A stretch of DNA of 64,000 nt from positions 14,455 to 78,454 of the forward strand of contig JBHJOH010000077.1 of assembly GCA_050329955.1 (NCBI GenBank). Direction: 5' to 3'. Under the pieces are notes generated by a model. That model was not told where the DNA came from. It ran no database searches and saw nothing but the letters and a program-made list of their open reading frames with translations. The position numbers and the translations under genes are program-made. Shown one piece after another: positions 3,056 to 61,540 of this stretch. This DNA comes from Acidimicrobiia bacterium (GTDB lineage Bacteria; Actinomycetota; Acidimicrobiia; Spongiisociales; ZC4RG35). How positions within the stretch are numbered: the stretch's first letter is position 1; every line of letters starts with the position of its first letter.

Positions 3056-3298
3056 CGAGCGACGAGCGACGAGCGACGAGCTGCCAGCCGCTTGCGGGCT
3101 TCACCGTGGTCTCGTCAGGTCTGGCACCGCCTCCGGACCTGCGGTCGGCGGACACATCTCCCTTCGGGCAGTTCCGCAACAACCTCCACCTCCGCCACAC
3201 ACGCGTAGGGGCGGCCGAGGCGCGAGTACGCCCAAACCCGAACCCTTGGCTCGTTGCTTTGGCTCGTCGCTCGTTGCTTTGGCTCGTAGCTCGTCGCT
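3056..3298. repeat. Intergenic element bounded by inverted heptamer arrays: (CGAGCGA)n at 3056-3082 and (GCTCGTN)n at 3248-3298, with a core containing GTAGGGGCGGCCGAGGCG (3205-3222)
   Basis: Read directly. The left array starts at the nucleotide after the mutase stop codon. The right array is the reverse-complement type. The 18-mer recurs at 9107-9124 in a second element. Confidence 0.6.
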
Positions 3299-3348
3299 GG
3301 CCTACCTGGTACCTGGTAGCTTTCCGGCTGTCGAGTAGCCTCTCGGCG

Positions 3349-4722
3349 GTGAGCGCTCCTACTCATTCCACCCCGGTCCGGTTTCTCGTCGTGGGTGGAG
3401 GGCCGGCCGGTGTGGCCGCCGCCACCACTGCTGCTTCGTTGGGGGCGAGGGTCACGCTCGTCGAGAAGTCGATCATCGGTGGTGCCGCTCATCTGTGGGA
3501 TTGCATCCCGTCGAAGACGATGGCGGCCACGGCCATCCGGGCCGACTCGATCCGCAACGCCGCCAAGTTCGGGTTGGTCGCCGACCCGGGGCGGATCAAT
3601 CCGGCCGAACTGGCGGAGCGGATTCAAACAATCTCGAGCGACATCACCAAGAGCTGGGTTCAGCTGCTCGATTCCCAGGACGTCGAGATCCTGCGGGGGC
3701 GGGGACGGTTCACGGACCCGAACACGGCGGTGATCGCCACCGACGACGGGGGCGAGGTCACCCGCTCCTTCGATATCGCGCTGGTGTCGACGGGGTCGGA
3801 CCCCCGGGTGCCCGAGTGGGTGATCGTCGATGGTGAGCGCATCCTCACCACCCGCGACGCCTACGACCTCCCCACGATTCCCGAACATCTGGTGGTGATC
3901 GGCTCGGGTGTCACCGGCGTCGAGTTCGTACACATCTTCGAGTCCCTCGGCTCGCAGGTCACCCTGGTCGTCAGCCGTCAGCACATTCTGCCGCACCGTG
4001 ACGCCGAGGTGGCGTCGGTACTCCAGGAGGACTTCCTCGATCGGGGTGTGAAGCTGGTGATGGGTGCCCGCGCCACCGCCATCGAACGCGAGGGTGAGGG
4101 AGTGGTGGTCAAGTGTGATGACGGCCGTGCCGTGCGTGGGAGCCATGCACTGCTCGCCATCGGGTCGGTGCCGCTGACCGACGGGATCGGGCTGGCCGAG
4201 GCGGGTGTCGAGACCGACCACGGGTACATCGGTGTCGATGCCTACCAGCGATCCTCCGCACCGCACATCTACGCGGCCGGTGACTGCACCGGGCAGATGC
4301 CGCTCTCGTCGGTCGCATCGATGCAGGGTCGAAAGATCGCCCGCCACGCCATGGGGCTGCCCGTGACGCCCATCGACTATCAGAAGGTCACCCAGGCCGT
4401 TTTCACCCAGCCCGAGATCGCCTCGGTGGGTCTCGAAGAGGTGGGGGCCGCCCAGGAAGGTCGGAAGGTGCGCACCACCAAGGTGCCGTTCGCCTCCAAC
4501 GCCCGTTCGGTTTTGCAGGGATACACGAGAGGTTTCGTGAAGGTGATCTCCGATCCGGCCACGGGCGTCGTCCTCGGCGGCACCATCGTCGGCCACCGTG
4601 CCTCGGAGCTGATCGGGATCATCGCGCTGGCGGTGCAGGCCCGGGTCACCGTCTCGATGCTGGTCGAGACTCTCATGGTCCACCCCAGTCTCAGCGAGAG
4701 CATCACCGACGCTGCCGAGTGA
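3349..4722 (+). CDS. FAD/NAD(P)-dependent pyridine nucleotide-disulfide oxidoreductase, LpdA-like (dihydrolipoamide dehydrogenase homolog with only one active-site Cys)
   Basis: Rossmann FAD motif VVGGGPAGVAAA, a second NAD motif VVIGSGVTGVEF, and a C-terminal dimerisation domain (HPSLSE). The active-site region reads GGAAHLWDCIPSK, where Lpd has CxxxxC. Putative GTG start at 3349. The 804-aa ORF 2308..4722 is an artefactual N-terminal extension. Confidence 0.75.
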   Translation: MSAPTHSTPVRFLVVGGGPAGVAAATTAASLGARVTLVEKSIIGGAAHLWDCIPSKTMAATAIRADSIRNAAKFGLVADPGRINPAELAERIQTISSDITKSWVQLLDSQDVEILRGRGRFTDPNTAVIATDDGGEVTRSFDIALVSTGSDPRVPEWVIVDGERILTTRDAYDLPTIPEHLVVIGSGVTGVEFVHIFESLGSQVTLVVSRQHILPHRDAEVASVLQEDFLDRGVKLVMGARATAIEREGEGVVVKCDDGRAVRGSHALLAIGSVPLTDGIGLAEAGVETDHGYIGVDAYQRSSAPHIYAAGDCTGQMPLSSVASMQGRKIARHAMGLPVTPIDYQKVTQAVFTQPEIASVGLEEVGAAQEGRKVRTTKVPFASNARSVLQGYTRGFVKVISDPATGVVLGGTIVGHRASELIGIIALAVQARVTVSMLVETLMVHPSLSESITDAAE

Positions 4723-4783
4723 GGTCGTCGGCCCCGGGCGCTTCCAGGACCATTCTGGACAGGACAAAGAAGCACCGACGGTG

Positions 4784-6526
4784 CTACTTGATGATGGCGA
4801 TGACCTCTCCCGCAGCGACGGTGTCGCCCGGTTGAACCCTCAGGTCCACCAGTTCACCGTCGATCGGGGCCTTGACCTCGTTCTCCATCTTCATGGCCTC
4901 GAGCACACAGATCGTGGCGCCGGCGGTCACCCGCTCGCCCGCCTTGGCGCTCACCTTGACGATCGTTCCCTGCATCGGGGCGGCGATGATCCCATCGGAG
5001 TGCCCGCCGGCCGTGGTCCGTTCCAGCTTCGGTGGCCTCCGACGGGTCGCTCCGGGTCCCGCCGACGACGGGGCATCCGGTGCCCAGAACGCCACTTCGA
5101 ACCGACGTCCGCCCACCTCGACCGTCATCGCCCTCCGGGTGAGCGCTTCCTCGGCGGGAAGCGTCTCGGTCTGGATGGGGTGAGCCGCAACCATCTGGAC
5201 GTCGGTCTCCATCCACCTGGTGTGGTGGCGCCCGGCGATGAAGTCGGGGTGAGCCAGCACGACCTGGTGGGCGGGAATCGTGGTCGCAACACCATGGACG
5301 ACGTATTCGTCGAGCGCCCGACGTGCCCGCGCGATCGCCTCGGTGCGGGTCGGGCCCCACACCACGAGCTTGGCCATCAGATTGTCGTAGTACTGGCTCA
5401 CGGTCGACGCCGGTCGAACCCAGCCGTCCACCCGCACGCCGATCCCGGATGGTTCGCGGTACTCCGAGATGCGGCCGGGGGAGGGGATGAAATTCCGGTA
5501 CGGGTCCTCGGCATTGATGCGGAGCTCGATGGCGTGGCCCCTCGGTTCGACCGAGGTCGTGGACAGTGGCTCGCCGTTGGCGATGCGGATCTGCTCGCGC
5601 ACCAGATCGAGGCCGGTCACCATCTCGGTCACCGTGTGCTCGACCTGGAGTCTCGTGTTCATCTCGAGGAAGTAGAAGTCTCCGCTCTGGTCGAGCAGGA
5701 ACTCGACGGTGCCGGCGTTGACGTACCCGCACGATCGCGCCACCGACAGCGCCGCCTCTCCGAACCGGGCCCTGATCTCGGGCGTCATCGCCGACGATGG
5801 GGTTTCCTCGACGAGTTTCTGATGGCGCCGTTGGACCGAGCAGTCCCGCTCCCCGGCGAACAGCTCGCCACCGTGGGTGTCCAAGAGGATCTGTGCCTCC
5901 ACGTGGCGGGGACGGTCGATGTACTTCTCGACATACACCTCGGGACTCCCGAAGTACGCCTCGGCTTCGCGGCGGGCGCCGTCATAGGCGTCGGAGACCT
6001 CGGAGGCGTCCCACACCACGCGAAGACCCTTGCCCCCGCCACCGTGGGCGGCCTTGATGGCGACCGGATAGCCGAAGTCTGCGGCGACGACCTTGACCCC
6101 ATCCGCATGCTCCAGCGGCTCCACCGTTCCGGGCACCGTCGGTGCGCCGGCGGCGATGGCGGCCCGGCGGGAGGAGATCTTGTCGCCCATGACCCGAATG
6201 GCCGCAGGTGGCGGGCCAACCCATCCGATCCCGGCATCGATCACCCGCTGAGCGAAGTCGGCGTTCTCGGACAGAAACCCGTACCCGGGGTGGATCGCAG
6301 CAGCGCGCGACTCGCGGGCGATCTCCAGAACCCGATTCGAATTGAGATACGAATCCGCCGGTGCGGCTCCCCCCACGTTCCACGCCTCGTGGGCCAACTC
6401 GACGTGCAGAGCGTCGCGATCGAGCTCGGAGTACACCGCAATGGTCCGCAGACCCATCTCCCGGGCCGTGCGGATCACCCGCACCGCGATCTCGCCCCGG
6501 TTGGCGATGAGAATCGACTCGAACAT
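4784..6526 (-). CDS. pccA: Acyl-CoA (acetyl/propionyl-CoA) carboxylase alpha subunit: biotin carboxylase plus C-terminal biotin carboxyl carrier domain
   Basis: MFESILIANRGEIAVRVIRTA N-terminus, ATP-grasp motifs, and C-terminal EAMKMENEV biotinylation motif. ATG at 6526 preferred over the GTG at 6592, which lies inside the heptamer array. Confidence 0.85.
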   Translation of the reverse strand: MFESILIANRGEIAVRVIRTAREMGLRTIAVYSELDRDALHVELAHEAWNVGGAAPADSYLNSNRVLEIARESRAAAIHPGYGFLSENADFAQRVIDAGIGWVGPPPAAIRVMGDKISSRRAAIAAGAPTVPGTVEPLEHADGVKVVAADFGYPVAIKAAHGGGGKGLRVVWDASEVSDAYDGARREAEAYFGSPEVYVEKYIDRPRHVEAQILLDTHGGELFAGERDCSVQRRHQKLVEETPSSAMTPEIRARFGEAALSVARSCGYVNAGTVEFLLDQSGDFYFLEMNTRLQVEHTVTEMVTGLDLVREQIRIANGEPLSTTSVEPRGHAIELRINAEDPYRNFIPSPGRISEYREPSGIGVRVDGWVRPASTVSQYYDNLMAKLVVWGPTRTEAIARARRALDEYVVHGVATTIPAHQVVLAHPDFIAGRHHTRWMETDVQMVAAHPIQTETLPAEEALTRRAMTVEVGGRRFEVAFWAPDAPSSAGPGATRRRPPKLERTTAGGHSDGIIAAPMQGTIVKVSAKAGERVTAGATICVLEAMKMENEVKAPIDGELVDLRVQPGDTVAAGEVIAIIK

Positions 6527-6581
6527 CAGCAGGGGCCCGTCGAAGAACGCATCGGAGGAATGGTAGGTGCCGCGAAGCGGG

Positions 6582-6640
6582 GCTGCAGCCACCAGCTGCC
6601 AGCTGCCAGCTGCCAGCTCCCAGCTGCCAGCTCCCAGCTC
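6582..6640. repeat. (AGCTGCC/AGCTCCC)n heptamer tandem array, about 8 units, directly after the pccB stop and upstream of pccA
   Basis: Sequence reads ccagctgccagctgccagctgccagctcccagctgccagctcccagctc. Confidence 0.7.
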
Positions 6641-8190
6641 TACAGCGGAATGTTCCCGTGCTTTCTCGGTGGCATCACTTCGCGCTTGGTGCGGAGCATG
6701 GCGAGTGCTCTGATCAGTTTGACCCTGGTCTCGCGGGGTTCGATGACTTCGTCGACCAGCCCGAGCTCGGCGGCGCGGTAGGGGTTGTTGAACTGGCTTT
6801 CGTACTCGGAGATCAGCTCGGTGCGGCGTGCCTCGACGTCGTCGGCGTCGGCGATCTCACGGCGGAACACTACGTTGACCGCACCCTGGGCGCCCATGAC
6901 GGCGATCTCGGCGGATGGCCATGCGTACACCAGGTCGGCGCGGATGCCGCGGGCGTTCATCACCAGATAGGCGCCGCCGTAGGCCTTGCGGGTGATGACT
7001 GTGACCCTGGGCACGGTGGCTTCGCAGTAGGCGTACAACAGCTTGGCGCCGTGGCGGATGATCCCCTGATGTTCCTGGGCGACACCGGGGAGGAACCCGG
7101 GCACGTCGACGAAGGTGACGAGCGGAATGTTGAAGGCGTCGCAGAAACGGACGAATCGGGCCGCCTTCTCGGACGCCTCGATGTCGAGGGTGCCGGCCAA
7201 CACGGCAGGCTGGTTGGCGACGATGCCGACCGAGTGCCCGTCGAGACGGGCGAAGCCGACCAGGATGTTCTTGGCGAAGTGCTCGTGGACCTGGAAGAAC
7301 TCGCCGTCGTCGACCACCTGGCCGATGAGCGTCACCATGTCGTACGGCTGGTTGGCGGAATCGGGAATGATGCGGTCGAGGCTGTCCTCGATCCGATCGC
7401 GACTGTCGGTGGGCGCGAAGTACGGCGGCATCTCCATGTTGTTCTGCGGCACGAACGACAGCAGGTAGCGGACAGTCTCGAGCGCCGTCTCGCCGTCGGG
7501 CATCACGAAGTGGGTGACACCGGATTTCGAGGCGTGGGTGAAGGCTCCGCCCAACTCCTCGAAGGTGACATCTTCGCCGGTCACGGTCTTGATGACGTCC
7601 GGCCCGGTGATGAACATGTGCGAGGTTCCGTCGACCTGGAAGATGAAGTCGGTGATGGCGGGGGAGTAGACGGCGCCACCGGCGCACGGGCCCATGATGA
7701 GCGAGATCTGGGGGATCACCCCCGACGACCGTACGTTGCGCTCGAAGATGCGCCCATACCCGTCGAGGGCGGCGACGCCCTCCTGGATGCGGGCCCCGCC
7801 CGAGTCCTTCAGACCGATGAGGGGAGCGCCCATCTCCAAGGCCATGTCCATGACCTTGCATATCTTGGCGGCGACCGCCGATCCGAGGCTGCCACCGAAG
7901 ACGGTGAAGTCTTCGGCGAACACGAACACGGTGCGACCGTCGACGGTGCCCCACCCGGTCACCACGGCGTCGCCCGGCGGCCGTTTGTCCTCGATGCCGA
8001 AGCCGCGGGCCTGATGGCGCACCATCATGTCGACTTCCTGGAACGAGCCCTTGTCGAGGAGCAGGTCGATGCGTTCGCGAGCGGTCAGCTTTCCCTGCTC
8101 GTGCTGGCGCGCCACCGCCCGCTCACTCCCGGCATGCAGGGATTCATCCCTCAGCCGTCTCAGTTGCTCGATACGAGCCTCGGTGCCCAC
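6640..8190 (-). CDS. pccB: Propionyl-CoA carboxylase beta subunit (carboxyltransferase)
   Basis: RIEQLRRLRDESLHAGSERAVARQHEQGKLTARERIDLLLDKGSFQE N-terminus and two carboxyltransferase domains. GTG at 8190 follows a GGAGGAGA ribosome-binding site. The first ~200 residues of ORF 6640..8799 are non-coding extension. Confidence 0.85.
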   Translation of the reverse strand: MGTEARIEQLRRLRDESLHAGSERAVARQHEQGKLTARERIDLLLDKGSFQEVDMMVRHQARGFGIEDKRPPGDAVVTGWGTVDGRTVFVFAEDFTVFGGSLGSAVAAKICKVMDMALEMGAPLIGLKDSGGARIQEGVAALDGYGRIFERNVRSSGVIPQISLIMGPCAGGAVYSPAITDFIFQVDGTSHMFITGPDVIKTVTGEDVTFEELGGAFTHASKSGVTHFVMPDGETALETVRYLLSFVPQNNMEMPPYFAPTDSRDRIEDSLDRIIPDSANQPYDMVTLIGQVVDDGEFFQVHEHFAKNILVGFARLDGHSVGIVANQPAVLAGTLDIEASEKAARFVRFCDAFNIPLVTFVDVPGFLPGVAQEHQGIIRHGAKLLYAYCEATVPRVTVITRKAYGGAYLVMNARGIRADLVYAWPSAEIAVMGAQGAVNVVFRREIADADDVEARRTELISEYESQFNNPYRAAELGLVDEVIEPRETRVKLIRALAMLRTKREVMPPRKHGNIPL

Positions 8191-8229: not shown

Positions 8230-8916
8230 ATGGCAACACCCTATTCGGTCGTTCGGCTGGGCGTGACCGACTCCACCCAGGACGATGCCCGTCGGCACCT
8301 CATCGATGAACCCGTCCTGGTGATCGCCGACGCCCAGACGGCCGGTCGTGGTCGCGGCGGGTCGACCTGGAAAACAGCTCCGCGAGCCGTTGCCATGTCG
8401 CTGGCGCTCCGGCCCGAATGGCCGGTATCGAGTTGGCCGCTGTTGCCGCTGCTCGCCGCAGTGGCCGCCGCCCGGGTGGTCGACTGCCAGCTCAAGTGGC
8501 CCAACGACCTCCTGGTGGCCGGCCGCAAGGTCGGTGGGATCCTGGTGGAGGCCGGCGATGGCCCGGTCGTGATCGGTCTCGGTCTCAACCTGTGGTGGCA
8601 GGACGCCCCCGGCGGCTACGGCGCCGTGTTCGCTGATGAGCCGCTCGACAATCAACCCGATGCGATGGCCGGCTCCTGGGCCGACCACCTGCTGGGCCTC
8701 GTGGGAGCCGGACCCGGCGTCTGGCCCCACGACGAGTACGTCAGTCGCTGCGTCACGATCGGCGCCGACATCACCTGGGACCCCGCCGGCGAAGGACACG
8801 CCGTCGGAATCGCACCGGACGGAGCCCTCATCGTGGAAACCCCCACCGGACCGAAGACGATCCGCTCAGGTGAGGTCAGGCATCTGAAGACAACAGCCAC
8901 CAGCTACGAGCCATGA
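8230..8916 (+). CDS. birA: Biotin--[acetyl-CoA-carboxylase] ligase, group I (no HTH domain)
   Basis: GRGRGGSTW and KWPNDLLVAGRKVGGILVE signatures. Divergent from pccB with a 39-bp gap. ORF 6658..8916 upstream of 8230 is the antisense shadow of pccB. Confidence 0.8.
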   Translation: MATPYSVVRLGVTDSTQDDARRHLIDEPVLVIADAQTAGRGRGGSTWKTAPRAVAMSLALRPEWPVSSWPLLPLLAAVAAARVVDCQLKWPNDLLVAGRKVGGILVEAGDGPVVIGLGLNLWWQDAPGGYGAVFADEPLDNQPDAMAGSWADHLLGLVGAGPGVWPHDEYVSRCVTIGADITWDPAGEGHAVGIAPDGALIVETPTGPKTIRSGEVRHLKTTATSYEP

Positions 8917-9320
8917 GCGACGAGCTACGAGCCATGAGCGACGAGCGACGAGCCAGAAGAGCTGCTCGCTATCGCGGGATGGTCTGTGCCATGGCGTTGA
9001 GCGGAGGATGTGGACGGCTGCGACCACCCGCCATCGGTGGAGGTTCACAGCTCCAGCATGGCTCTACGAAGAACGTGCCTGCACGGGCCGGTGGGCCGGT
9101 TCCGGGTAGGGGCGGCCGAGGCGGGCGAGGACGCTCTATGCCCGAGCCGTGTTACCCGGCGAAGGCGAGGGGTCGCCGCAGATGGCAACGAACTTGGCGG
9201 TCGAAACGCAAACGATGCCCTGGCGGTAAGGCGTAAACGATCCCCTGGCGGTTCTCCCGCAGCCAGTCTCGCTCGTAGCTCGTAGCTCGTAGCTCGTAGC
9301 TCGTAGCTCGTAGCTCGTAG
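8901..9320. repeat. About 420-bp intergenic element bounded by inverted heptamer arrays: (CGAGCTA/CGAGCGA)n at 8901-8954 and (TAGCTCG)7 at 9271-9320, with the core 18-mer GTAGGGGCGGCCGAGGCG at 9107-9124
   Basis: Read directly. The left array overlaps the last birA codons. The right array ends at the stop codon of the convergent dienelactone-hydrolase gene. ORF 8913..9236 inside it is not credible. Confidence 0.6.
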
Positions 9321-9324: not shown

Positions 9325-10068
9325 CTATCCGACCTCTTGAACCGACGCTTTCGGCAGCGTGGCCAGGAAGAAGTCGACGAGTCGCTGAATGGCGTCCTCG
9401 GCCGAGCCCTGGTCGTAGGTGGGGCCGCCGTCGTCGAGGAATCCGTGTCCCACCCCTTCGTAGAGCAGCCAGCTTCCCGAGGCGTTGCGGTTCTGGGCCT
9501 CGTCAACGGTGTCGGGGTCGACGAGGTCGTCTTCTGCGCCGTAGATGGCGAGGATCGGAGGGGCGAGGTGGTCCAGCATGTCGGCTACCTGGTAGCGGCG
9601 CTCTTCGTCGCCGGTGAGGGGGGCATAGGCCACGGCGGCCGAGGCAACCCACGGGCGGTGGGCGGCCTGGATGAGGGCGAAACGTCCGCCGACTTCGAGT
9701 CCGAGAACGCCGACCCGTGCCGCGTGCGCCCACTCGATGTCTTCGCTCGACAGGTACTCCTGGACCTCGTCGAGGACCCGGACCGCTTCGCCGTCGTCGA
9801 GGTCGTGGTAGGTCTCGAGAGCGTCGCCGGTGCGGTCGTTCGCGTAGAGGTCGACTGCGATCACCGCCACCCCCCGCCGGGCGATGCGGCGGGCCAAGTG
9901 CTTCTCGTGGGCGGTGACACCGTCGATATCGGGTACGAGGATGACGACCGGGAACCGGCCCGACTTGTCCGGGCGCGCCAGATATCCGGGGCGGTAGCCG
10001 GTCCCGACCGAAATCGGGAGGCCGCCGTACATGACCGAGTAAGTGCCTTCGTGCGGGAGTACAGCCAC
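9325..10068 (-). CDS. Dienelactone hydrolase family protein
   Basis: Alpha/beta-hydrolase DLH pattern (PVVILVPDIDGV...AVDLY, GVGHGF). The position where DLH has GYCLGG reads GLEVGG, a possible nucleophile substitution. Confidence 0.7.
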   Translation of the reverse strand: MAVLPHEGTYSVMYGGLPISVGTGYRPGYLARPDKSGRFPVVILVPDIDGVTAHEKHLARRIARRGVAVIAVDLYANDRTGDALETYHDLDDGEAVRVLDEVQEYLSSEDIEWAHAARVGVLGLEVGGRFALIQAAHRPWVASAAVAYAPLTGDEERRYQVADMLDHLAPPILAIYGAEDDLVDPDTVDEAQNRNASGSWLLYEGVGHGFLDDGGPTYDQGSAEDAIQRLVDFFLATLPKASVQEVG

Positions 10069-11512: not shown

Positions 11513-12778
11513 GTGGACGTAGCCGTCATCGGCGGAGGGTATGTGGGTCTGGTCCAGGCCGCCGGTCTGGCGCGCCTTGGTCATCGGGTTCGTGTCGGCG
11601 AGGTGAACCCGGCCAAGCTGGCCGAATTGGAGGCCGGACGGCTTCCGATCTACGAGGCCGGACTCGACGATCTCATGGAGGAGGCGCTGGGTTCCGGCTC
11701 GCTGACCTTCCACGCTGACAATCTCGAGGCGGCGGGGTCTGCCGACGTCACCTTCCTGTGCCTGCCCACGCCTCCGGGGGTGGATGGAGCCGCCGACCTC
11801 AGCGTGGTCGAGGCCGTGATCCGCCAACTCGCCGACGGCTTGAGGGCCCAGTCGGTGGTTGTGGTGAAGTCGACGATTCCGGTGGGCACCACGGCCCGCC
11901 TGTCGAAGCGGTATGGCGGCCGGCTGAGACTGGTCGGGAACCCGGAGTTCCTCCGTGAGGGCTCGGCGGTGTCGGACTTCCTCCATCCCGATCGCATCGT
12001 CGTCGGATGCGACGACCGGGAGGCGGCCGAGACGGTGGCGGCCCTCTACGACGGGCTCAACACCCGGGTCCTTTTCACGGATCCGACCTCGGCGGAGCTC
12101 ATCAAGTACGGCGCCAACGGCTACCTGGCGACACGCCTCACCTTCGTCAACGCCCTCGCCAACATCGCCGAGTCGGTGGGTGCCGACATCCTCGACGTGG
12201 TCGAGGGTATGGGCCTGGATCCGCGTATCGGCCCCCACTTCCTGCGGCCCGGTCCCGGGTACGGGGGTTCCTGCTTCCCGAAGGACACCATTGCACTGCT
12301 CGCCACCTCCAGACAGGCGGGATACGAGTTCACGCTGCTCCAATCCGTGGTCGATGCCGACCGTTCCCAACGTCACTGGATCGTGGGCAACATCCGTCGC
12401 CTGGTCGGCGGTGATCTCGCCGATGCCCGAATCGGAATGTGGGGGGTGGCCTTCAAGGCCGGGACAGACGACACGAGGGAGTCGCCGGCGCTGAAGATCG
12501 CCCAGATGCTCACCGCCGATGGAGCCACTGTCGCCGCCTACGACCCGGAGGCAACATCCGACGCCATCGAGATGGCGGGCGACCCGGTGGCGGCAGCCAA
12601 GGGTGCGTCAGTGCTCATCATTGCCACCGAGTGGCCCGAGTTCCGTTCGATCGACCTGGCGAGGGTGGCGGCGGCGATGGAGGGCAACGTGGTCTACGAC
12701 CTTCGCAACCTGCTCGATCCCGCCGCGGTGAGAGCGGCCGGTCTGGTCTACATGGCCCTGGGTCGCCCCAACGCGTAG
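11513..12778 (+). CDS. UDP-glucose/GDP-mannose dehydrogenase family protein (nucleotide-sugar 6-dehydrogenase)
   Basis: NAD motif VIGGGYVGL, catalytic GGSCFPKD, and a C-terminal UDP-binding domain. GTG start with GGGAGAGGGAG ribosome-binding site. Confidence 0.85.
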   Translation: MDVAVIGGGYVGLVQAAGLARLGHRVRVGEVNPAKLAELEAGRLPIYEAGLDDLMEEALGSGSLTFHADNLEAAGSADVTFLCLPTPPGVDGAADLSVVEAVIRQLADGLRAQSVVVVKSTIPVGTTARLSKRYGGRLRLVGNPEFLREGSAVSDFLHPDRIVVGCDDREAAETVAALYDGLNTRVLFTDPTSAELIKYGANGYLATRLTFVNALANIAESVGADILDVVEGMGLDPRIGPHFLRPGPGYGGSCFPKDTIALLATSRQAGYEFTLLQSVVDADRSQRHWIVGNIRRLVGGDLADARIGMWGVAFKAGTDDTRESPALKIAQMLTADGATVAAYDPEATSDAIEMAGDPVAAAKGASVLIIATEWPEFRSIDLARVAAAMEGNVVYDLRNLLDPAAVRAAGLVYMALGRPNA

Positions 12779-26953: not shown

Positions 26954-26956
26954 GAG

Positions 26957-27022
26957 AGCAGCTGCTAGCTGCTGGCTTCTTGCTTCTTGCTTCTAGCCAG
27001 TAGCCAGTAGCCAGTAGCCAGC
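26957..27022. repeat. Heptamer tandem array (CAGCTGC, TAGCTGC, CTTCTTG x3, CCAGTAG x4) starting 4 nt after the ahcY stop
   Basis: Read directly. Confidence 0.7.
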
Positions 27023-27057
27023 TCCTTTTTGTCACCCCCCTCCGATACGTTCCGGCG

Positions 27058-36451: not shown

Positions 36452-37213
<762 letters not shown>

Positions 37214-37674: not shown

Positions 37675-37678
37675 CAAC

Positions 37679-37698
37679 GGGGTGTTTACAAAACACCC
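37679..37698 (+). terminator. Perfect 8-bp hairpin GGGTGTTT-aca-AAACACCC directly after the tmRNA
   Basis: Read directly. A second hairpin, aggccctccggagcgttccggagggcct, lies ~50 nt further on. Confidence 0.5.
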
Positions 37699-49731: not shown

Positions 49732-49796
49732 CACCTTTTGCACATTGTGCAGAACGCACGCGATTCGCCCACCTTCTGCACAATGTGCAAAAGGTG
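49732..49796. promoter_or_regulatory. Perfect 23-bp inverted repeat (arms 49732-49754 and 49774-49796, 19-nt spacer), each arm holding a 13-bp palindrome TGCACA-N-TGTGCA: putative operator and/or terminator
   Basis: caccttttgcacattgtgcagaa ... ttctgcacaatgtgcaaaaggtg. AT-rich relative to the genome. Sits between the ABC permease stop (49814) and the DUF983 start. Confidence 0.5.
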
Positions 49797-49813
49797 GGCT
49801 CGTCGCTCGTCGC

Positions 49814-52282
49814 TCATTCGTACGCGATCGCTCCCAGCACGTCAAGGCGTCCGGCTTTGCGGGCGGGCCAGGCGGCGGCGACAACGCCGGCGATGGCGGC
49901 CGCTCCGAGCCAGATGGCGAGCTGACCGAACGGTATGTCGATTGCGCCGAGGCCCTCGTCTGCGAGGGAGATCACTACTGCCGTGCCGAGGGTCGAACCA
50001 ACGATCACCCCGAGCGTCGCCCCGAAGACGGCGATGATGACCGCCTCGGATCGGATCATCCGGCCAACCTGCCCACGTCCCATGCCGACCGCCCGCAGCA
50101 GGCCGATCTCCCGGGTCCGCTCCACGATCGACAGCATGAGGGTGTTGGCGATGCCCATCACCGCGATGAGGATGGCCAGTCCGAGCAGGCCCGTGAAGAG
50201 GCCCACCAGCTGGTCGACCTGGCGCTCGGCGTCGGCGATGACCTCGGATCTGGTCGAGACTTCGACGTTGGGGAACCGTCCGAGGGCGGTACCGAGGATG
50301 TCCGCCCCCTCGTCCACCGACACACCTTCTGTCAGCGACACGAAGGCAAGCGAGGCGTCGAGTGGACCCACGGCGTCGTCGAGCGTCTGTACCGCCACCA
50401 GAATCGTTCCCAGGTTGGCGTTGGTGAATGTGCCCGTCAACGCGACTTCGACCGGGCCGGGCCCACCTTCGATGGTGACCATGTCGCCGATCGCCAAACC
50501 CCTGTCAGTGGCCGTCCCTGCCAGCATGAGGGCGCCGTCGGCCAGCAACGCCGGATCCCAGCCGTCGCCCCCGTCGAACACGGCTCCGATGCTGGCGGGA
50601 TCGACCCCGGCCCAGTCCTGCCAGAACGTCACCGGCGACAGCACCGCCACCTCGTCGGTTTCAGCCACGGCTTCGAGCGCCGCATCGCTGATGCCTACGG
50701 CGAAGTTGCTGCTCTGCAGCGACAGGTCGGCGGGGAAAGCCTCGTCGAGTGTGTCGACCACCGAGGCCTTGACCGAGGCAGCAAACACCGACACGAACGC
50801 CACCAGCGCCACACCGATCATGAGGGCCGATGCGGTGGCGGCCGAGCGCCGGGGATTGCGGGTGGTGTTCTCGCGGGCCAGCTTGCCGGTCACGCCCCGG
50901 AACGGGCTGCCCAGGATCGCCGCCGCCGGCCGCGAGAACAGCGGGGCGAGCACCGAAACGCCCAGGAACACGACCAACGCTCCCGCTCCCACCCAGATCG
51001 CCGGGCTCGGGATGTCGCCGAACAGCGACATCCCGATCGCGGTCGATCCGGCCAACAGCGCGGTGCCGCCCACCATCCCACGTCGTCGGAGTGAGCCGGG
51101 TGTCGAGGTCTCGATGGCCTCGGCCCGCATGGCGGCCACCGGCGGCACCTTGGCGGCCCGGCGGGCGGGCAGCAGCGCCGACACCAGCGTGACCACCACA
51201 CCCACCCCCATACCAACCGCGATCGTCCGGGGTAGCAGGGTGATCGGTCCGTCGGGTACTTCGAGGCCGAAGTTCGCCATCCCCGCCTTGATTCCCATCG
51301 CCAGGCCGATGCCGGCCGCTACTCCCACCGTCGACGCCACCACTGACACCATCAGCGCCTCGATGGTCACCAGCCTGGTGACCTGACGACTGGTGGCGCC
51401 GATCGCCCGCAACAACGCCAGCTCGCGTGTCCGTTGCCCGACGATGATCCGGAAGGTGTTCTGGATGATGAAGCCGCCCACCAGCACCGACACAGCAGCG
51501 AACGCCAGTAGGGCCGTGTTCAGGAACGACAGGCCCTCGGTGACTCCGTCGAGCTGCTCGCTGGTCTGCTGCTCACCGGTGACCGCCTCCAGTCCTTTCG
51601 GGAGGGCCTCGCCGACCACGTTTGCAAGTTGATCGGGCTCGAGCGAGCCCACTGTGTCGATGGAGCTGAGCTTGCCCTCCAGATCGAAGAGCCGTTGTGC
51701 CTCGGACAGCTCGAAGACGGCCAGGGTTGCCCCCGCCAGATTGTCCTCTGTCCCGAAGTTGACCAGCCCGACCAGTTCGAACTCCTCGACACCGCCCTCC
51801 GTCTGGATCTCGACCAGATCGCCCAGCGACCACCCGTTGGCTTCGGCGGTGGCAACGTCGATTGCGGCCTCGCCCGGCGCCGCCGGTGCCCGACCGTTGC
51901 CGTCGGCGATGCGGAGCGGGTTGAGTGCCTCGGCGTCGATCCACGAGAACCCGAGCGTGGGGGGACCCTGCCCACCGATGGGGTCGCCGGCCTCGTCGAC
52001 GATCTGGGCGAATCCCTCCACGAACCCGGCTGCCTGCTCGACCCCGTCGAGTGCGGCGATCCGGTCGAGGACGGCGGCGTCGATGGCGGTGTCGTCAACC
52101 GGGCGGACCGTCACGTCGATGCCGGCGTAGACATCGGAGAACAGGTTCTCGAAGCGGGCATTGATGGTGTCGGTGAACACGAAGCTCCCCGACACGAACG
52201 CCACACCGACCACGATGGCGGCCGCCGTCAGCAGGAACCTCAACCGATGGGCGAGCACGCCCTTGAGTGCGGTGGCGAACAC
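49814..52282 (-). CDS. ABC transporter permease, FtsX-like fold, MacB-type with two permease domains
   Basis: 822 aa with 4 TM helices, a large extracytoplasmic domain, then 4 more TM helices. Plus-strand ORFs 49397..51094 and 49935..51386 are antisense artefacts. Confidence 0.85.
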   Translation of the reverse strand: MFATALKGVLAHRLRFLLTAAAIVVGVAFVSGSFVFTDTINARFENLFSDVYAGIDVTVRPVDDTAIDAAVLDRIAALDGVEQAAGFVEGFAQIVDEAGDPIGGQGPPTLGFSWIDAEALNPLRIADGNGRAPAAPGEAAIDVATAEANGWSLGDLVEIQTEGGVEEFELVGLVNFGTEDNLAGATLAVFELSEAQRLFDLEGKLSSIDTVGSLEPDQLANVVGEALPKGLEAVTGEQQTSEQLDGVTEGLSFLNTALLAFAAVSVLVGGFIIQNTFRIIVGQRTRELALLRAIGATSRQVTRLVTIEALMVSVVASTVGVAAGIGLAMGIKAGMANFGLEVPDGPITLLPRTIAVGMGVGVVVTLVSALLPARRAAKVPPVAAMRAEAIETSTPGSLRRRGMVGGTALLAGSTAIGMSLFGDIPSPAIWVGAGALVVFLGVSVLAPLFSRPAAAILGSPFRGVTGKLARENTTRNPRRSAATASALMIGVALVAFVSVFAASVKASVVDTLDEAFPADLSLQSSNFAVGISDAALEAVAETDEVAVLSPVTFWQDWAGVDPASIGAVFDGGDGWDPALLADGALMLAGTATDRGLAIGDMVTIEGGPGPVEVALTGTFTNANLGTILVAVQTLDDAVGPLDASLAFVSLTEGVSVDEGADILGTALGRFPNVEVSTRSEVIADAERQVDQLVGLFTGLLGLAILIAVMGIANTLMLSIVERTREIGLLRAVGMGRGQVGRMIRSEAVIIAVFGATLGVIVGSTLGTAVVISLADEGLGAIDIPFGQLAIWLGAAAIAGVVAAAWPARKAGRLDVLGAIAYE

Positions 52283-56464: not shown

Positions 56465-57166
56465 ATGGCGAGAGACCGCGCAGACGACGAACTGAGACCT
56501 GTCCGTATGCACCTGGCGTACACCCAGAGCACCCCCGGGTCGGTGCTGATCGAGATGGGACGCACCCGTGTGTTGTGCACGGCGTCGGTGGAGGACGATA
56601 TCCCCCGTTGGATGCGCGACTCCGGGAAGGGCTGGGTGACCGTCGAGTACGGCATGCTTCCCGGGTCCTCCAACGATCGGATCCGGCGCGACTCCTACAC
56701 CAAGGGTCGCCAGCAGGAGATCTCCCGGCTGATCGGCCGGGCATTGCGGGCGGTGGTGGACACCACCGCCATGAACGAACGGATGGTGCGGGTCGACTGC
56801 GACGTGATCGAGGCCGACGGTGGTACCCGCACCGCCGCCATCACCGGCGCCTGGGTGGCCTTGTGGGACGCCTGCCAGTGGGCGATCGACCGTTCCATGA
56901 TGACCCGCAACCCGATCATCGACCAGGTGGCCGCTGTTTCGGTGGGGATGGTGGGGGGTGCAACACTTCTCGATCTCGAATACGAGAGCGACGCAGCGGC
57001 GGACGTCGATCTGAATGTCGTCATGTCCGGCAGGGGAGGACTGGTCGAGGTGCAGGGCACCGCCGAAGGTTCGGTGTTCGACCGGGCCGACCTCGACCGG
57101 ATGCTCGACCTGGCCGAGGTCGGCGTCGCCGAGTTGCTCGACCTCCAGAAGCAGGCCACGGCGTGA
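56465..57166 (+). CDS. rph: Ribonuclease PH
   Basis: RNase PH motifs CDVIEADGGTRTAAITGA. Confidence 0.9.
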   Translation: MARDRADDELRPVRMHLAYTQSTPGSVLIEMGRTRVLCTASVEDDIPRWMRDSGKGWVTVEYGMLPGSSNDRIRRDSYTKGRQQEISRLIGRALRAVVDTTAMNERMVRVDCDVIEADGGTRTAAITGAWVALWDACQWAIDRSMMTRNPIIDQVAAVSVGMVGGATLLDLEYESDAAADVDLNVVMSGRGGLVEVQGTAEGSVFDRADLDRMLDLAEVGVAELLDLQKQATA

Positions 57167-57744
57167 TCGAGCGGCTGGTCGTTGCCTCCAAGAACCGTGA
57201 CAAGATCGCCGAGATGGAGTCGGTGCTGGTCGGTACCGGCCTGGTGGGCGAGATCGTGCGCGGGCTGGAGTGGCCTGACGTCGACGAGACCGAGGGCACC
57301 CTCGAAGGCAACGCCCTGCTCAAGGCCCACGCCGTGTTCGCCGCCACCGGGCTCCCGTCCGTCGCCGACGACACGGGGCTCGAGTTGGCGGCGCTAGGTG
57401 GTGAACCGGGTGTCTTCACCGCCCGCTACGCCGGACCCGATGCCACCTACGACGACAATGTCCAGAAGCTTCTCGACGAGCTGACCGGCCACGCCGACCG
57501 AACGGCAGTGTTCCGCACCGCCATCGCCCTGGTGGCACCCGGCACCGAGCCCGTCGTGGTGGAGGGTCACATCGTCGGTCGCATCGCCGAAGAGCGCCGG
57601 GGAAGCGGCGGCTTCGGGTACGACCCGGTCTTCGAGGTGGACGGCCTCACCTTCTCCGAGATGGGAACAGACCGGAAGAACGAATTGTCGCATCGAGCCC
57701 GCGCCATCCGGGCGTTGGCGGAGGTGTTGAGAGCTTCGAGCTGA
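57163..57744 (+). CDS. rdgB: Non-canonical purine NTP pyrophosphatase (RdgB/HAM1)
   Basis: ASKNRDK...ADDTGL...FGYDP motifs. GTGA overlap with rph. Confidence 0.85.
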   Translation: MIERLVVASKNRDKIAEMESVLVGTGLVGEIVRGLEWPDVDETEGTLEGNALLKAHAVFAATGLPSVADDTGLELAALGGEPGVFTARYAGPDATYDDNVQKLLDELTGHADRTAVFRTAIALVAPGTEPVVVEGHIVGRIAEERRGSGGFGYDPVFEVDGLTFSEMGTDRKNELSHRARAIRALAEVLRASS

Positions 57745-57828
57745 GAGCTGCGAGCTTCGAGCTACGGGCTACGGGCTACGGGCTACGGGCTACGAGCTAC
57801 GAGCTACGAGCTACGAGCTACGAGCTAG
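57731..57828. repeat. Heptamer tandem array (CGAGCTT, CGAGCTG..., CTACGGG x4, CTACGAG x5) overlapping the last codons of rdgB
   Basis: Read directly. Confidence 0.7.
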
Positions 57829-58142: not shown

Positions 58143-60421
58143 ATGCGATCGATCCGCCGCCGAAGCATCGGCGTGACACTTACATCTGCGGCACTGGTGT
58201 TCTCACTGGTACCGGCTGCGGTGGGAAGTCCCACCGAGTCCAACTCGTCCGTGTGTCCACCTTCTCGGTGTACACCAACAACGCCGACCCGGCCGCCGAG
58301 ACCGTGGCCGAGATCGTGGCGGCGTCTTCTGATGGAAAGACGCTGATCTACACCGATGGCTCCAACGCCACCCTCGGTTTCGTCGACATCGCCGACCCTT
58401 CGTCCCCCAAGCCGTTGGGCACGGTCGACCTGCCGGGTGAGCCGACCTCGGTTGCGGTGGTGGGTCGTTTCGCCGTTGCCGGTGTGAACACCAGCGAGTC
58501 GTTCATCAACCCTTCAGGCGAACTGGCGGTGATCGACATCACCCGACAGCGCATCGTGACGAGTCTTGACCTGGCGGGTCAGCCCGACTCGGTGACGGTG
58601 AGCCCCGACGGGAAGTACATCGCGATCGCCATCGAGAACGAGCGCGACGAGGACGTCACCGTCGACGATGTCGAAGGAGGCCTCCCGCAGGCACCCGCCG
58701 GCCTCCTCCAGATCGTCGACGTGAAGGGCGCACCGCGAAACTGGGACATCCGTGACGTCGACATGACCGGTCTGGCCGGCTACGGCGCCGATGATCCCGA
58801 GCCCGAGTTCGTCGATATCAACACGCGCAACCAGGCGGTCGTGACGATGCAGGAGAACAACCACCTCGCCATCGTGGATCTGCGGCGTGGCACGGTCACC
58901 CGTGACTTCCCGGCCGGTACGGTCACACTCGTTGGTGTGGATGCGGTGGAGGATGGCATCATCTCGCTGACCGACACGATCACCGACATTCCCCGTGAGC
59001 CCGACGCAGTCGCCTGGATCGGCACCGGCCGTTTCGCCACTGCCAATGAGGGTGACCTGTTCGGCGGAAGCCGTGGGTTCACGGTCTACGACATGACGGG
59101 TCGTGTCCGCTACGACTCCGGAACCTCCTTCGAGGAGATCGCGGTGGCACACGGGCACTATCCCGAGGACCGCTCCGAGAACAAGGGTTCGGAACCCGAG
59201 TCCATCGAGTTCGGCCGCTTCGGTGCCACCAACTACCTGTTCGTCGGTTCCGAGCGGGGAAGCTTCGTCAACGTCTATCAGATGAGGGGCGATCAGCCGT
59301 CGTTCCGTCAGCTCCTGCCCACGGGTCTCAGCCCCGAGGGTCTGCTGGCGATCCCTGGCCGCAACCTGTTCGTTGCCTCCACCGAGGCCGATGATCCCGA
59401 GTTCGGTGTTCGCACCACCATCATGATCTACGAGCTCGTGAAGGGCGCACCCGCCTACCCCGGGATCATGTCGGTGGACGGACCTGACGGCACGCCCATC
59501 CCGTGGAGCGCAATGTCGGGCCTCGGAGCGGACCCGCACGATGCCGACACGCTCTACGCCGTGTGGGACTCGTATTACTCCGAGAGCAGGGTCTTCACCA
59601 TCGACGTCAGCGAAACGCCGGCGAAGGTGGTGGAAGCGATCACCATCGACGGCGGGACGGGCAATTACGACCCGGAGGGCGTGGTTGTCGCTCCTGACGG
59701 AACCATGTGGATCGCCTCCGAAGGCAACGCTTCGGGCTCGAGGACTAACCGCCTCCTGCAGATCGATGCGGCCGACTCGGTGCTGGCCGAGGTCGAACTG
59801 CCTGCCGAAGTCCTCGCCTGTCGGGCGGCGTCGGGGAACCGTGGATCCCTGGGCGCCGGCTTCGAGGGCGTGACGGTGGTCCCGTCGGCCGGCGGGTACA
59901 CCCTCGCCATCGCTCAGCAGCGCGGATGGGACTACACCACCGACGGCTGCGAGGATCTGGACGACGATCCCAGCGGCGCCAATTCGGGTGAGCCCGGATA
60001 CACCCGCATCTGGACATACGACCCCGTCACCGGAGAGTGGGGTTCGATCGCCTACGAGCTCGAGCCCATCACGACTTACGCCGCCTGGACCGGTCTCTCG
60101 GAGATCACCGCCTTGGAGGACGGATCGTTCGTGCTCATCGAACGGGACAACGTCACCGGCGACTGGGCGGAGCTGAAGACGCTGGTGAAGGTGACTCCCG
60201 AGGCGATGGCCGACGGGGTGATCGAGCGGTCCGAGAAGCTCGTGTACGACGTGCTTCCCGACATGCAGGCGTCCAACGGTTGGATCACCGACAAGCCCGA
60301 AGGCTTTGCGGTCGCCGCCGATGGCCAGACCTACCTCATCACCGACAACGACGGAGTTGAGGACTGGTCCGGTGAGACCCAGTTCCTGCGGCTGGGCACG
60401 ATCGACAGCCTCTTCGACTGA
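58143..60421 (+). pseudogene. Secreted ~750-aa beta-propeller-like protein (phytase-like or choice-of-anchor-type repeats). The signal-peptide frame and the body frame are offset by 1 nt near 58240-58255
   Basis: ATG at 58143 after a GGGAGG ribosome-binding site encodes MRSIRRRSIGVTLTSAALVFSLVPAAVG (signal peptide) in frame 0. The conserved body (ORF 58253..60421) is in the -1 frame, which opens only at 58178. A (GT)3 run sits at the junction. Confidence 0.55.
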
Positions 60422-60444
60422 GCAGAAGGTCCATAAGAACCGGA

Positions 60445-60472
60445 GGGCCCCGGGCGGTGACGTCCGGGGCCC
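60445..60472 (+). terminator. GC hairpin GGGCCCCGG-N10-CCGGGGCCC downstream of the secreted-protein gene
   Basis: Read directly. Confidence 0.45.
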
Positions 60473-60830
60473 GGTCCGCGTATAGCCGGAGGTTGGGAGC
60501 AGGCCGGAGGCCGGAAGCAGGAGGCCCGAAGCCGGAGGCGCGGCAGGCAGATCGTACAACGTACAACGTACCGGATCCGCTTCAGGCACCGTTGGCAGTG
60601 GGAGCCTCTGATCAAGGAGGATCGCATTCCTCGGCCCGTCACGCCGAGAGCTACGACGGGTGCCTGAAGCGGGTTTCAGGGGTGGCAGGCTGAGGCCGGA
60701 GGCGGTGACGTCAGAGGCCTCAGGGACGTGGCGACAGATTTCAGGTAGAGGGCCTACACCCCCGGCCCGTCACGCCGAGAGCTACGAGGAGTGCCGGGGG
60801 GTTTCAGGGGGGTCGTCCCCACTGGAGTGA

Positions 60831-61010: not shown

Positions 61011-61084
61011 TCGGGATGGCCGGATTCGAACCGGCGGCCCCCTGGTCCCAAACCAGGTGCGCTACCAAGCTGCGCCACATCCCG
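61011..61084 (-). tRNA. tRNA-Pro (anticodon TGG)
   Basis: Reverse complement CGGGATGTGGCGCAGCTTGGTAGCGCACCTGGTTTGGGACCAGG...GGTTCGAATCCGGCCATCCCGA. Confidence 0.8.
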
Positions 61085-61143
61085 TGAAGCAGAAGCGTAC
61101 AGCGTTCCGCACGCTCGCTGGGACGGGTATCCTGAATGACCTT

Positions 61144-61214
61144 GCGGGTGTAGCTCAATGGTAGAGCCCCAGCCTTCCAAGCTGGTCATGAGGGTTCGAT
61201 TCCCTTCACCCGCT
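61144..61214 (+). tRNA. tRNA-Gly (anticodon TCC)
   Basis: GCGGGTGTAGCTCAATGGTAGAGCCCCAGCCTTCCAAGCTGGTCATGAGGGTTCGATTCCCTTCACCCGCT. Confidence 0.8.
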
Positions 61215-61475
61215 CTGATACATCCAGGGGGGTCGACCCCCCTGACCCCCCGCCGGTGCGCGTCAGGAACGGATCGCGGGCTTGGCCGGGGTTGGGGACG
61301 CAACGCGGGATCTGGTTGCCACGTGGTTGAGGTTGAACGGTCAACGGTGAACGGTGAACTCTCCTGCCAGACGACCCCCCTGACCCCCCGCCGGTGCTGG
61401 TCGTGGATTCTTCGCGTTGTGGGCCGGGGGTGTGGACGGGTACGCAGTGCCGTTCCCACGTTCGGTACCTTCCGG

Positions 61476-61540
61476 GCGTTCTGCGTTCTGCGTTCTGCGT
61501 TCTGCGTTCTGCCTCCTGCCTCCTGCCTCCTGCCCCTCCT
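61476..61540. repeat. Heptamer tandem array (GCGTTCT x4, GCCTCCT x3) in the tRNA-Gly/tRNA-Arg spacer
   Basis: Read directly. Confidence 0.7.

Follow-up and report, generated by a model that had tools for sequence, protein, structure and literature searches.

In many bacterial genomes, heptanucleotides are the most abundant of the long simple sequence repeats (SSRs) with units of 5 to 11 nt (Mrázek 2007, as summarized in PMC4679880 and PMC4692102). According to the same summaries, long SSRs occur in the large, high-G+C genomes of nonpathogens and in sporadic lineages including Actinobacteria, and polymerase slippage has been proposed as their origin. That study is a statistical survey, and stop codon anchoring, strand bias, and partner arrays are not covered in it as summarized there. 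We analyzed a 64,000-nucleotide stretch of an Acidimicrobiia genome (assembly GCA_050329955.1, contig JBHJOH010000077.1, positions 14,455 to 78,454 of the forward strand; the whole stretch is referred to below as the window), in which tandem arrays of 7-nt units resize by whole units, lie in untranslated DNA, and begin at stop codons on the sense strand. On balance, we lean toward the view that these arrays are heptanucleotide long SSRs acting as slippage-resized hairpin elements of the 3' untranslated region (3' UTR).

Several heptamer repeats have been described. The GGGAATC heptamers of Xanthomonas and the GGGGAYT heptamers of Nostoc are present at tens to hundreds of loci per genome, 89 to 93% of them intergenic, at a mean distance of 28 nt from the upstream open reading frame (ORF) (Rehm 2015, PMC4692102). 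They show a preference for the sense strand, form 70 to 75 inverted pairs, and are mostly transcribed; their position is conserved across related species, whereas their length and sequence are variable (PMC4692102). The STRR heptanucleotides of cyanobacteria (Mazel et al. 1990) are cited in the same study. TAACTGA repeats, found in marine Beggiatoaceae, cyanobacteria, and Bacteroidetes, lie a few nucleotides upstream of start codons in 2 to 6 copies; they carry stops in all forward frames, and in some cases the repeat extends over the stop of the preceding gene (MacGregor 2015, PMC4679880). The latter work also discusses the binding of heptamer repeats by CspB, with one protein per unit. A survey of short tandem repeats published in 2025 mentions neither heptamers nor stop codons (PMC12699852), and the array sequences of the window were not found in the literature searched.

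The arrays of the window share with long SSRs the tandem 7-nt unit, the excess over composition, and the whole-unit length polymorphism. With the heptamers of Xanthomonas and Nostoc they share the unit length, the proximity to stops, the sense bias, and the occurrence of convergent inverted pairs. Unlike these, they are devoid of G-tracts of at least 3 G (GGG is present in just two nonadjacent AGCTGGG units), belong to several unit families in one genome, and reside in an Acidimicrobiia host. Since the units contain AGCT or CAGCTG palindromes and no G-tracts, they are likely to form hairpins instead of G-quadruplexes. The STRR repeats are reportedly intergenic tandem heptanucleotides belonging to few genome-specific unit families in heterocystous cyanobacteria; the window arrays are likewise tandem heptanucleotides, but the host phylum differs, and the units are presumably unrelated in sequence. 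Like the TAACTGA repeats, the window arrays are intergenic, gene-oriented heptamers with one unit occurring across distant phyla; unlike them, they follow stops, reach 14 copies, and mostly lack stops on the sense strand.

Other repeat classes are more distant in organization. Repetitive extragenic palindromic (REP) sequences and bacterial interspersed mosaic elements (BIMEs) of enterobacteria and pseudomonads are single imperfect palindromes of 20 to 40 nt with a 5' GTAG, linked to RAYT transposases. The 3' untranslated niche, the RNA hairpins, and the dispersed distribution are reminiscent of these elements, and a GTAG-hairpin motif co-occurs with the arrays; the arrays themselves are head-to-tail 7-mers and not single palindromes, in agreement with an earlier note on this DNA, made from its letters. 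No RAYT or other transposase was found in the gene tables, which cover part of the window. The repeats of CRISPR loci measure 23 to 50 nt and alternate with unique spacers of similar length, whereas the 7-nt units are contiguous and without spacers, as the earlier note had also stated. Contingency-locus SSRs, with units of 1 to 5 nt located in promoters or within 5' coding regions, act as on-off switches of genes in host-adapted pathogens. Copy-number change by slippage is common to these and to the window arrays, but the latter follow the stop codon, and changes in unit number therefore leave the protein unaltered. The arrays had been considered not to be a standard bacterial feature. This view is not supported, given the commonness of heptanucleotide long SSRs and the Xanthomonas and Nostoc precedent (PMC4679880, PMC4692102), for which stop anchoring, sense bias, inverted pairs, and length variation are already on record (PMC4692102).

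Arrays of the window and their placement

Tandem Repeats Finder (TRF) detected period-7 arrays of 3.7 to 13.9 copies, with 74 to 100% matches, at all eight places named in the earlier note. Arrays at 3249-3298 and 61334-61359 and a mini-array at 49798-49815 came in addition to that list. The arrays, designated A1 to A10, and the associated motifs are as follows.

3055..3081 (+): A1, (ACGAGCG), 3.9 copies, sense strand; its first base is the last base of the mutase TAA stop
3205..3233 (+): REP-like motif, GTAG followed by the hairpin GGGCG...CGCCC, in the A1-A2 loop
3249..3298 (-): A2, GCTCGTN units (CGAGC on the minus strand), reverse-complement partner of A1
6592..6639 (-): A3, (AGCTGGS), 6.9 copies (CCAGCTG on the forward strand), sense strand of pccB
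8895..8955 (+): A4, CGAGCTA/CGAGCCA/TGAGCGA units, 8.7 copies, with a 21-nt super-period
9106..9136 (+): REP-like GTAG-hairpin motif, second copy, within the A4-A5 loop
9271..9322 (-): A5, (CGAGCTA), 7.4 copies (GCTCGTA on the forward strand), sense strand, inverted partner of A4
26955..27030 (+): A6, (AGCTGCT)2 (KGCTTCT)3 (AGCCAGT)4, beginning 4 to 6 nt past the ahcY TGA
49798..49816 (-): mini-array (GAGCGAC), 2.6 copies (49798-49815 by TRF), sense strand of the MacB/FtsX permease gene
57728..57827 (+): A7, GAGCTNN units, 13.9 copies (GAGCTAC, GGGCTAC)
60485..60571 (+): A8, AGGCCGG-like units, 5.6 copies (60485-60539), plus (CGTACAA), 2.7 copies
61334..61359 (+): A9, (TGAACGG), 3.7 copies, between tRNA-Gly and tRNA-Arg genes, no nearby stop codon
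61476..61534 (+): A10, (GCGTTCT), 5.3 copies, plus (CTGCCTC), 3.7 copies, ending 96 nt upstream of tRNA-Arg, no nearby stop

By TRF, A6 extends from 26960 to 27021 and is composed of 5.4 copies of AGCTTCT plus 4 copies of TAGCCAG. The gene names given in the earlier note (mutase, pccB, birA, hydrolase, ahcY, and rdgB) agree with Pfam, which supports the following assignments for the genes whose stops adjoin arrays.

1496-3055 (+): methylmalonyl-CoA mutase
6640-8190 (-): carboxyltransferase, pccB
about 8230-8916 (+): biotin ligase, birA (BPL_LplA_LipB, 59.8 bits; BPL_C, 30.2 bits)
9325-10032 (-): dienelactone hydrolase
25706-26953 (+): AdoHcy hydrolase, ahcY
49814-52282 (-): MacB/FtsX permease
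57163-57744 (+): Ham1/RdgB, rdgB

The first base of A3 directly follows the TAG stop of pccB, and the start of pccA (6526) is located about 65 nt further downstream. An (AGCTGCC)8 array had been described at 6582-6640; an array is indeed present there, with 6.9 copies starting at 6592, the first 10 nt of that interval being degenerate. Each unit is a CAGCTG palindrome with one extra base. In pccB, the stop is preceded by the conserved C terminus ...HGNIPL, so that nothing is truncated by A3. A4 contains the last 7 codons of birA (...TATSYEP*) and its TGA stop on the sense strand; the proposal that an array extends over the last birA codons is thus borne out, the end of birA inside 8895-8955 being backed by ENA gene calls, Pfam, and codon-position G+C. 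A5 begins 2 nt past the dienelactone hydrolase TAG stop, and the TGA of the permease gene overlaps the first GAGCGAC unit of the mini-array. The last 5 codons of rdgB (LRASS) and its TGA stop are units of A7, the longest array in the window, which is followed 96 nt downstream by a convergent tRNA-Leu gene. With the exception of these last 5 to 7 codons of birA and rdgB, the arrays are not coding repeats, as had been claimed. The end of A2 is located about 114 nt upstream of the start of the Pyr_redox gene.

The window contains 9 to 10 period-7 arrays versus none in 30 dinucleotide shuffles analyzed with equal TRF thresholds. All 10 arrays lie within noncoding DNA, which represents 12% of the window. 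A stop codon is touched by six of the 10 (at 0 nt in two cases, at +2 and +6 nt in one case each, and by overlap in two) versus 0.29 expected for uniform positions in intergenic DNA, and six were reached in none of 50,000 simulations. The concentration at gene 3' ends is therefore real, although the claim that each array lies 0 to 15 nt from a stop holds for six loci only. It does not hold for 61476-61534, between tRNA genes, or for 60485-60539 in A8, which is not stop adjacent but located 63 nt past the stop of a phytase-like gene (58253-60421), beyond a GC-rich hairpin (60440-60478). Arrays abut stops even where the spacer is 335 to 742 nt long, and no window array was found within 12 nt of a start codon.

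Units of the CGAGCNA family are present at five or more loci of the window, and all five arrays of this family that touch stops are in the sense orientation (mutase, +; birA, +; hydrolase, -; permease, -; rdgB, +). Sense arrays occur on both strands within 6 kb, which indicates that their orientation goes with the gene rather than with the DNA strand. The 64 kb contain at least five unit families unrelated to one another (AGCTGGS, AGCCAGT, AGGCCGG, TGAACGG, and GCGTTCT), and the AGCT/GAGC core that had been attributed to the arrays is found in most of them but not in those near tRNA genes. The stops located inside arrays are single-substitution derivatives of the units (CGA to TGA and GAG to TAG), and a TGAGC context is present at about nine of the roughly 50 stops of the window.

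Length polymorphism was assessed by comparison with ENA contig k127_825030 (SRR3310977), the NCBI metagenome-assembled genome (MAG) GCA_964398535.1, and a Logan assembly (SRR10436665). The matching assemblies correspond to an uncultured organism of a stromatolite metagenome and are 99.8 to 99.9% identical to the window. A6 is base-for-base equal in the ENA and Logan assemblies, which originate from different sequencing runs. A7 is longer in the window by one CGGGCTA unit than in two other assemblies, and A5 by one CGAGCTA unit than in the ENA assembly; both indels are located downstream of the stop codon. The third multi-base indel, between the window and the ENA assembly, is one CCGTTG unit of a coding (Gly-Asn)n hexamer array. 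All three multi-base indels separating the window from the other assemblies are whole-unit changes in SSR arrays, and their presence between near-identical assemblies indicates that slippage is active. Copy number is thus variable, as had been anticipated. The hexamer array (CCGTTG, 9.3 copies, 36468-36523, minus strand) lies in an ORF (36452-37213) and encodes the C-terminal (Gly-Asn)n tail of a protein without a Pfam match.

Relatives and the metagenome scan

Among species-representative genomes, the best matches of PccB were from Acidimicrobiia MAGs (72 to 83% identity), and the gene content of the window is actinobacterial (DUF3499, LytR_C). The nearest relative, locus L004 (83% identity for PccB), contains seven period-7 arrays in 21.5 kb. 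Such arrays are absent from most other Acidimicrobiia loci and present in scattered unrelated lineages (Muribaculaceae, Methylomirabilis, and Desulfohalobiaceae), a patchy distribution that matches descriptions of long SSRs. The pccB-pccA spacer is 0 to 35 nt long in array-less relatives (L005, L006, L007, and L009), indicating that the arrays are insertions into a tight operon junction. In L004, an array of the unit CAGACGG (CAGCTGG in the window) is located 14 nt past the pccB stop, and a reverse-complement CAGACGG array is located 43 nt before pccA; this pair architecture is similar to that of the window, with another unit. At this junction, the position of the array is kept, whereas the unit turns over. 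The CAGACGG family is present at three L004 loci. In L004, a perfect 16-bp hairpin with a 3-nt loop (11550-11584) has the pccB stop within its 5' arm. Its 3' arm repeats the last pccB codons in inverted form and runs into (CAGACGG)n, a hint that fold-back copying of the pccB end seeded the array.

Two further array-rich regions were observed. At L004 13943-14926, two arrays of a near-palindromic unit, AGTACT plus one base, bracket an arginase-family gene split over three frames, which either is a pseudogene or contains frameshift errors from long reads. This gene is absent at the equivalent junction of the window. In a Muribaculaceae MAG (L023, 15138-18247), each of three consecutive intergenic spacers contains two heptamer arrays unrelated to each other, the first located 0 to 25 nt past the upstream stop and the second 7 to 30 nt before the next start.

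A metagenome scan for (CGAGCTA)4 returned at least 120 loci, which were normalized to the CGAGCTA strand and provided with codon-based gene calls. The counts for (CGAGCTA)n arrays given in this paragraph hold among the matches listed. The contigs have G+C contents of 38 to 71%. A co-oriented stop was found at most 12 nt upstream of 39 of the 79 evaluable arrays, and in 15 of these 39 it was located at exactly -2, TAG or TGA sharing bases with the first unit. After de-duplication by flanking sequence, 30 of 65 sense arrays versus nine of 68 antisense arrays were at most 12 nt past a stop (P = 0.001), and none of about 65 arrays was located at most 12 nt from a start. Since CGAGCTA does not contain a stop triplet in any frame of the sense strand, this adjacency does not trivially result from ORF truncation, and truncation by array-borne stops was rejected for this unit. 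A complementary partner was present within 800 nt for 12 of 87 arrays, and convergent inverted pairs are thereby found in the scan, at A4/A5 and A1/A2, and in L004. Clear terminators downstream from some metagenomic arrays place these arrays between stop and terminator. In 16 of 84 arrays, belonging to one lineage and adjacent to different genes, the array is followed by the conserved box GGATAG-N13-GGAAAGTTCC (L086, L093, L095, L100, L101, L111, L136, L142, L143, L164, L169, L171, L176, L192, L199, and L204). This lineage has a G+C content of 56 to 64% and contigs of up to 966 kb, and a CTGTAGGAGC hairpin often follows the box; the boxed array looks like one module of a mosaic intergenic element. 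At three boxed loci, the translation of the next gene resembles a small four-helix-bundle "23S rRNA intervening sequence" protein, for which it is a candidate. Metagenome contigs often end within heptamer arrays (the end of L002 and many scan loci).

For arrays of other units in the fetched loci, which span several phyla, 19 of 58 intergenic arrays were at most 12 nt from a stop versus 4.0 expected. A stop triplet is present on the sense strand of 16 of these 19 arrays, and part of this signal could thus be due to stops supplied by the arrays. The units of 18 of 26 stop-adjacent arrays contain a 4-nt palindrome versus 36% of random heptamers, the units being partly shared and the entries nonindependent, and the sense strand of stop-adjacent arrays displays a slight G>C skew. 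The matches in viral contigs, 4 for CGAGCTA versus 0 and 1 for two control units of the same composition, were too few to indicate whether CGAGCTA is a favored unit.

Predicted RNA structure and competing explanations

The first and last sub-arrays of A6 are predicted to pair in a hairpin of -40 kcal/mol (z = -3.5), followed by the U-run CUCCUUUUU, and this combination looks, in the folding model, like an intrinsic terminator. A U-run is present only after A6 and is absent after the remaining window arrays. Between convergent genes, A4 and A5 are opposed and represent 64-nt arms with 83% complementarity, separated by 293 nt; the fold of the 551-nt region has a z of -6.7, and the arm duplex is predicted at -99 to -107 kcal/mol. 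The A1/A2 pair forms a long stem in both the minimum free energy and centroid structures (z = -2.0; duplex, -56 kcal/mol), and the predicted fold of A3 alone is -31.9 kcal/mol. Next to the permease mini-array and upstream of a DUF983 gene, a near-perfect palindrome (49732-49796) has 32-nt arms that are 88% complementary and separated by 1 nt (-54 kcal/mol as RNA). This hairpin is not followed by a U-run; it might serve as an operator or as a terminator for both directions. Consensus promoter and terminator scans around the arrays revealed no excess over shuffles, and Rfam, used at gathering thresholds, detected only the transfer-messenger RNA (tmRNA) and six tRNAs, with no known RNA family at the arrays.

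According to the 3'-UTR hairpin reading, an array that lies between a stop and the end of the transcript would, as we infer from its position, make up the first transcribed part of the 3' UTR. At birA and rdgB, the array has engulfed the last codons of the gene. Palindromic cores (AGCT and CAGCTG), opposed sub-arrays, and partner arrays would then allow the transcript to form long RNA hairpins serving as 3'-end structures, terminator-like at ahcY and acting as stabilizing or processing stems elsewhere. Such hairpins would fill the niche that is occupied by REP and BIME sequences in enterobacteria, and slippage would adjust the length of the stems in steps of 7 nt. Probable contributors to the exact start at the stop codon are seeding at TGA-GC, freezing by selection of a first unit that bears the stop, and intolerance of arrays nearer to downstream promoters or ribosome-binding sites. 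The in-array stops, which differ from units by one substitution, and the frequency of TGAGC point to the stop context as a seed and to the first unit as a target of selection.

Several observations weigh against this reading. A hairpin role alone leaves the recurrence of one unit at five or more loci in one genome unaccounted for. Considered alone, A1 (z = +0.3), A4 (z = +0.6), A7 (z = -1.0), A8 (z = -0.2), and A10 (z = -1.2) fold approximately like shuffles, and A7 has no partner array in the window. The role in termination or 3'-end stabilization that had been proposed for the arrays gains support from predicted structure for part of them. The arms of A4 and A5 are just 83% complementary, and the variant units of A4 are uncompensated in A5, so that selection for pairing is not demonstrated. 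A8 to A10, which are devoid of the AGCT core, are located near tRNA genes and not stop codons, and some arrays of relatives (L004 and L023) abut starts at distances of 7 to 30 nt.

The arrays might instead be neutral by-products, without function, of slippage at any short proto-repeat, with those arising in coding sequences, promoters, and ribosome-binding sites being purged, from coding sequences because a length of 7 nt is not divisible by 3, and with the remainder piling up against stops, where a TGA-GC context would seed them and a deletion bias would trim them to the stop. We regard this explanation as rather doubtful. It is consistent with the unit-number polymorphism, which reflects active slippage, with the difference in units at the pccB-pccA junction between the window and L004, and with the tiny ancestral spacers, in which a new array must abut the stop. 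The TGAGC context at about nine of the roughly 50 stops, the single-substitution origin of in-array stops, and the several arrays without structure beyond that of shuffles are also on its side. It predicts neither the 3:1 bias in favor of the sense orientation (among the matches listed) nor the stop-abutting arrays of the roomy 335- to 742-nt spacers, and independent births would be expected to yield neither the recurrence of one unit family (five or more loci within 64 kb) nor that of partner arrays. More generally, simple slippage leaves uncovered the presence of CGAGCTA at unrelated stops across 38 to 71% G+C (among the matches listed), the recurrence of unit families, the family switch in L004, the partner arrays, and the stop as a variant of the first unit. 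These features would be explained if stop-anchored sense heptamer arrays were a widespread class of 3'-UTR elements with a generating or selecting mechanism of its own, a proposal that we consider unlikely. Candidate mechanisms are birth coupled to translation termination (R-loop or backtracking), copying between loci, and length-tunable terminators or RNase III stems. In another explanation, R-loops or RNA polymerase backtracking where ribosomes leave the RNA would create a transcription-coupled mutational hotspot, the folded, displaced sense strand, with AGCT hairpins here and G-quadruplexes in Xanthomonas, driving strand-specific slippage. This would cover both stop anchoring and orientation, and it fits the start of arrays at or after stops on the sense (nontemplate) strand, the 4-nt palindromes in 18 of 26 stop-adjacent arrays versus 36% of random heptamers (nonindependent entries), the slight G>C skew of the sense strand, and the G-rich heptamers of Xanthomonas located past stops on the same strand (PMC4692102). 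The idea is purely inferential and, in our judgment, quite improbable, since CGAGCTA is without G/C skew, partner arrays occupy the other strand, and arrays are also found beside tRNA genes and upstream of starts.

Recurrence of a unit could alternatively reflect a binding platform, CGAGCNA units in RNA or DNA being occupied by one protein per 7 nt, for example, by a cold-shock-domain or other single-strand binder; selection would then maintain a unit family specific to the genome. The five or more window loci of this family, the three CAGACGG loci of L004, the strict strand bias, and the CspB precedent of one protein per heptamer unit (PMC4679880) are in its favor. The presence of at least five unrelated unit families within 64 kb and the turnover of the unit between close relatives at the pccB-pccA junction make such a platform highly improbable, and no candidate protein was identified. 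There is a very slim chance that the arrays belong to a mobile or mosaic intergenic element inserting beside stops, in the manner of miniature inverted-repeat transposable elements, REP/RAYT, or BIMEs. The inverted pairs of the window bracket spacers that each contain a REP-like GTAG-hairpin motif, the box GGATAG-N13-GGAAAGTTCC and the CTGTAGGAGC hairpin follow 16 of 84 arrays (among the matches listed), and comparison with relatives devoid of arrays shows the arrays to be insertions. Against insertion of such an element, target-site duplications were looked for and none was seen, the two window spacers share just about 30 nt (the GTAG-hairpin motif), and unit sequences differ between close relatives. 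There is no transposase nearby in the gene tables, which cover part of the window, the gene bracketed by arrays in L004 is a frameshifted gene of the arginase family and not a transposase gene, and Pfam gave no match for ORFs in the spacers of L004 and of the window. Finally, an assembly or sequencing artifact, for which the location of many metagenomic matches at contig ends and the end of one MAG contig inside the ahcY array might speak, has a practically negligible probability. The arrays are flanked on both sides by unique sequence, the ahcY array is identical in independent assemblies of different runs, the other differences between assemblies are clean one-unit indels, and contig breaks at repeats are normal assembler behavior. 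The possibility of assembly artifacts raised in the earlier note is therefore not borne out.

Neighboring features and significance

The GTAG motif, GTAG-GGGCR-[RCCGAGG..CGAG..]-YGCCC, is present in three copies (3205-3233, +; 9106-9136, +; and 46649-46620, -), and its stem displays one compensatory change (GGGCG/CGCCC versus GGGCA/TGCCC). The A4-A5 loop additionally contains 2.3 copies of the 25-nt tandem repeat TGGCGGTAAAACGCAAACGATCCCC (9195-9252). Two pairs of direct repeats flank the tRNA cluster. The first (60598-60680 and 60745-60810) is about 55 nt long and contains CGCCGAGAGCTACGA, which corresponds to about 1.5 array units, in a small hairpin. The second (61234-61300 and 61372-61438) is 67 nt long, is 78% identical, and begins with CGACCCCCCTGACCCCCCGCCGGTGC just past tRNA-Gly. 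These pairs could be remnants of integration sites. The tmRNA gene (37319-37677; tag, AEDNFALAA) is followed by 913 nt without a called gene and then by a gene encoding a HipA-family toxin kinase (Couple_hipA and HipA_C domains; region, 37678-39823), and this stretch possibly represents a small island that has inserted at ssrA. A second, "permuted" tmRNA called by ARAGORN at 37584-38312 had no Rfam support.

What is new in comparison to the Xanthomonas and Nostoc heptamers is the non-G-quadruplex AGCT-core units, the Acidimicrobiia host, and the extension of the rule across many uncultured taxa (among the matches listed). The fact that the rule also holds for units unable to provide G-quadruplexes argues that it is general to the class and does not result from G-quadruplex chemistry. 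Heptamer arrays systematically break up metagenome assemblies of the lineages in which they occur, and they are usable as strain-level variable-number tandem-repeat markers. To our knowledge, the heptanucleotide SSRs that are abundant in many large, high-G+C genomes have been assigned neither an established function nor a positional rule, and the window provides clean test loci for the sense-oriented stop anchoring of such arrays. If the arrays are slippage-tunable 3' hairpins, they would give bacteria without canonical terminators a rapidly evolving control of transcript ends and stability.

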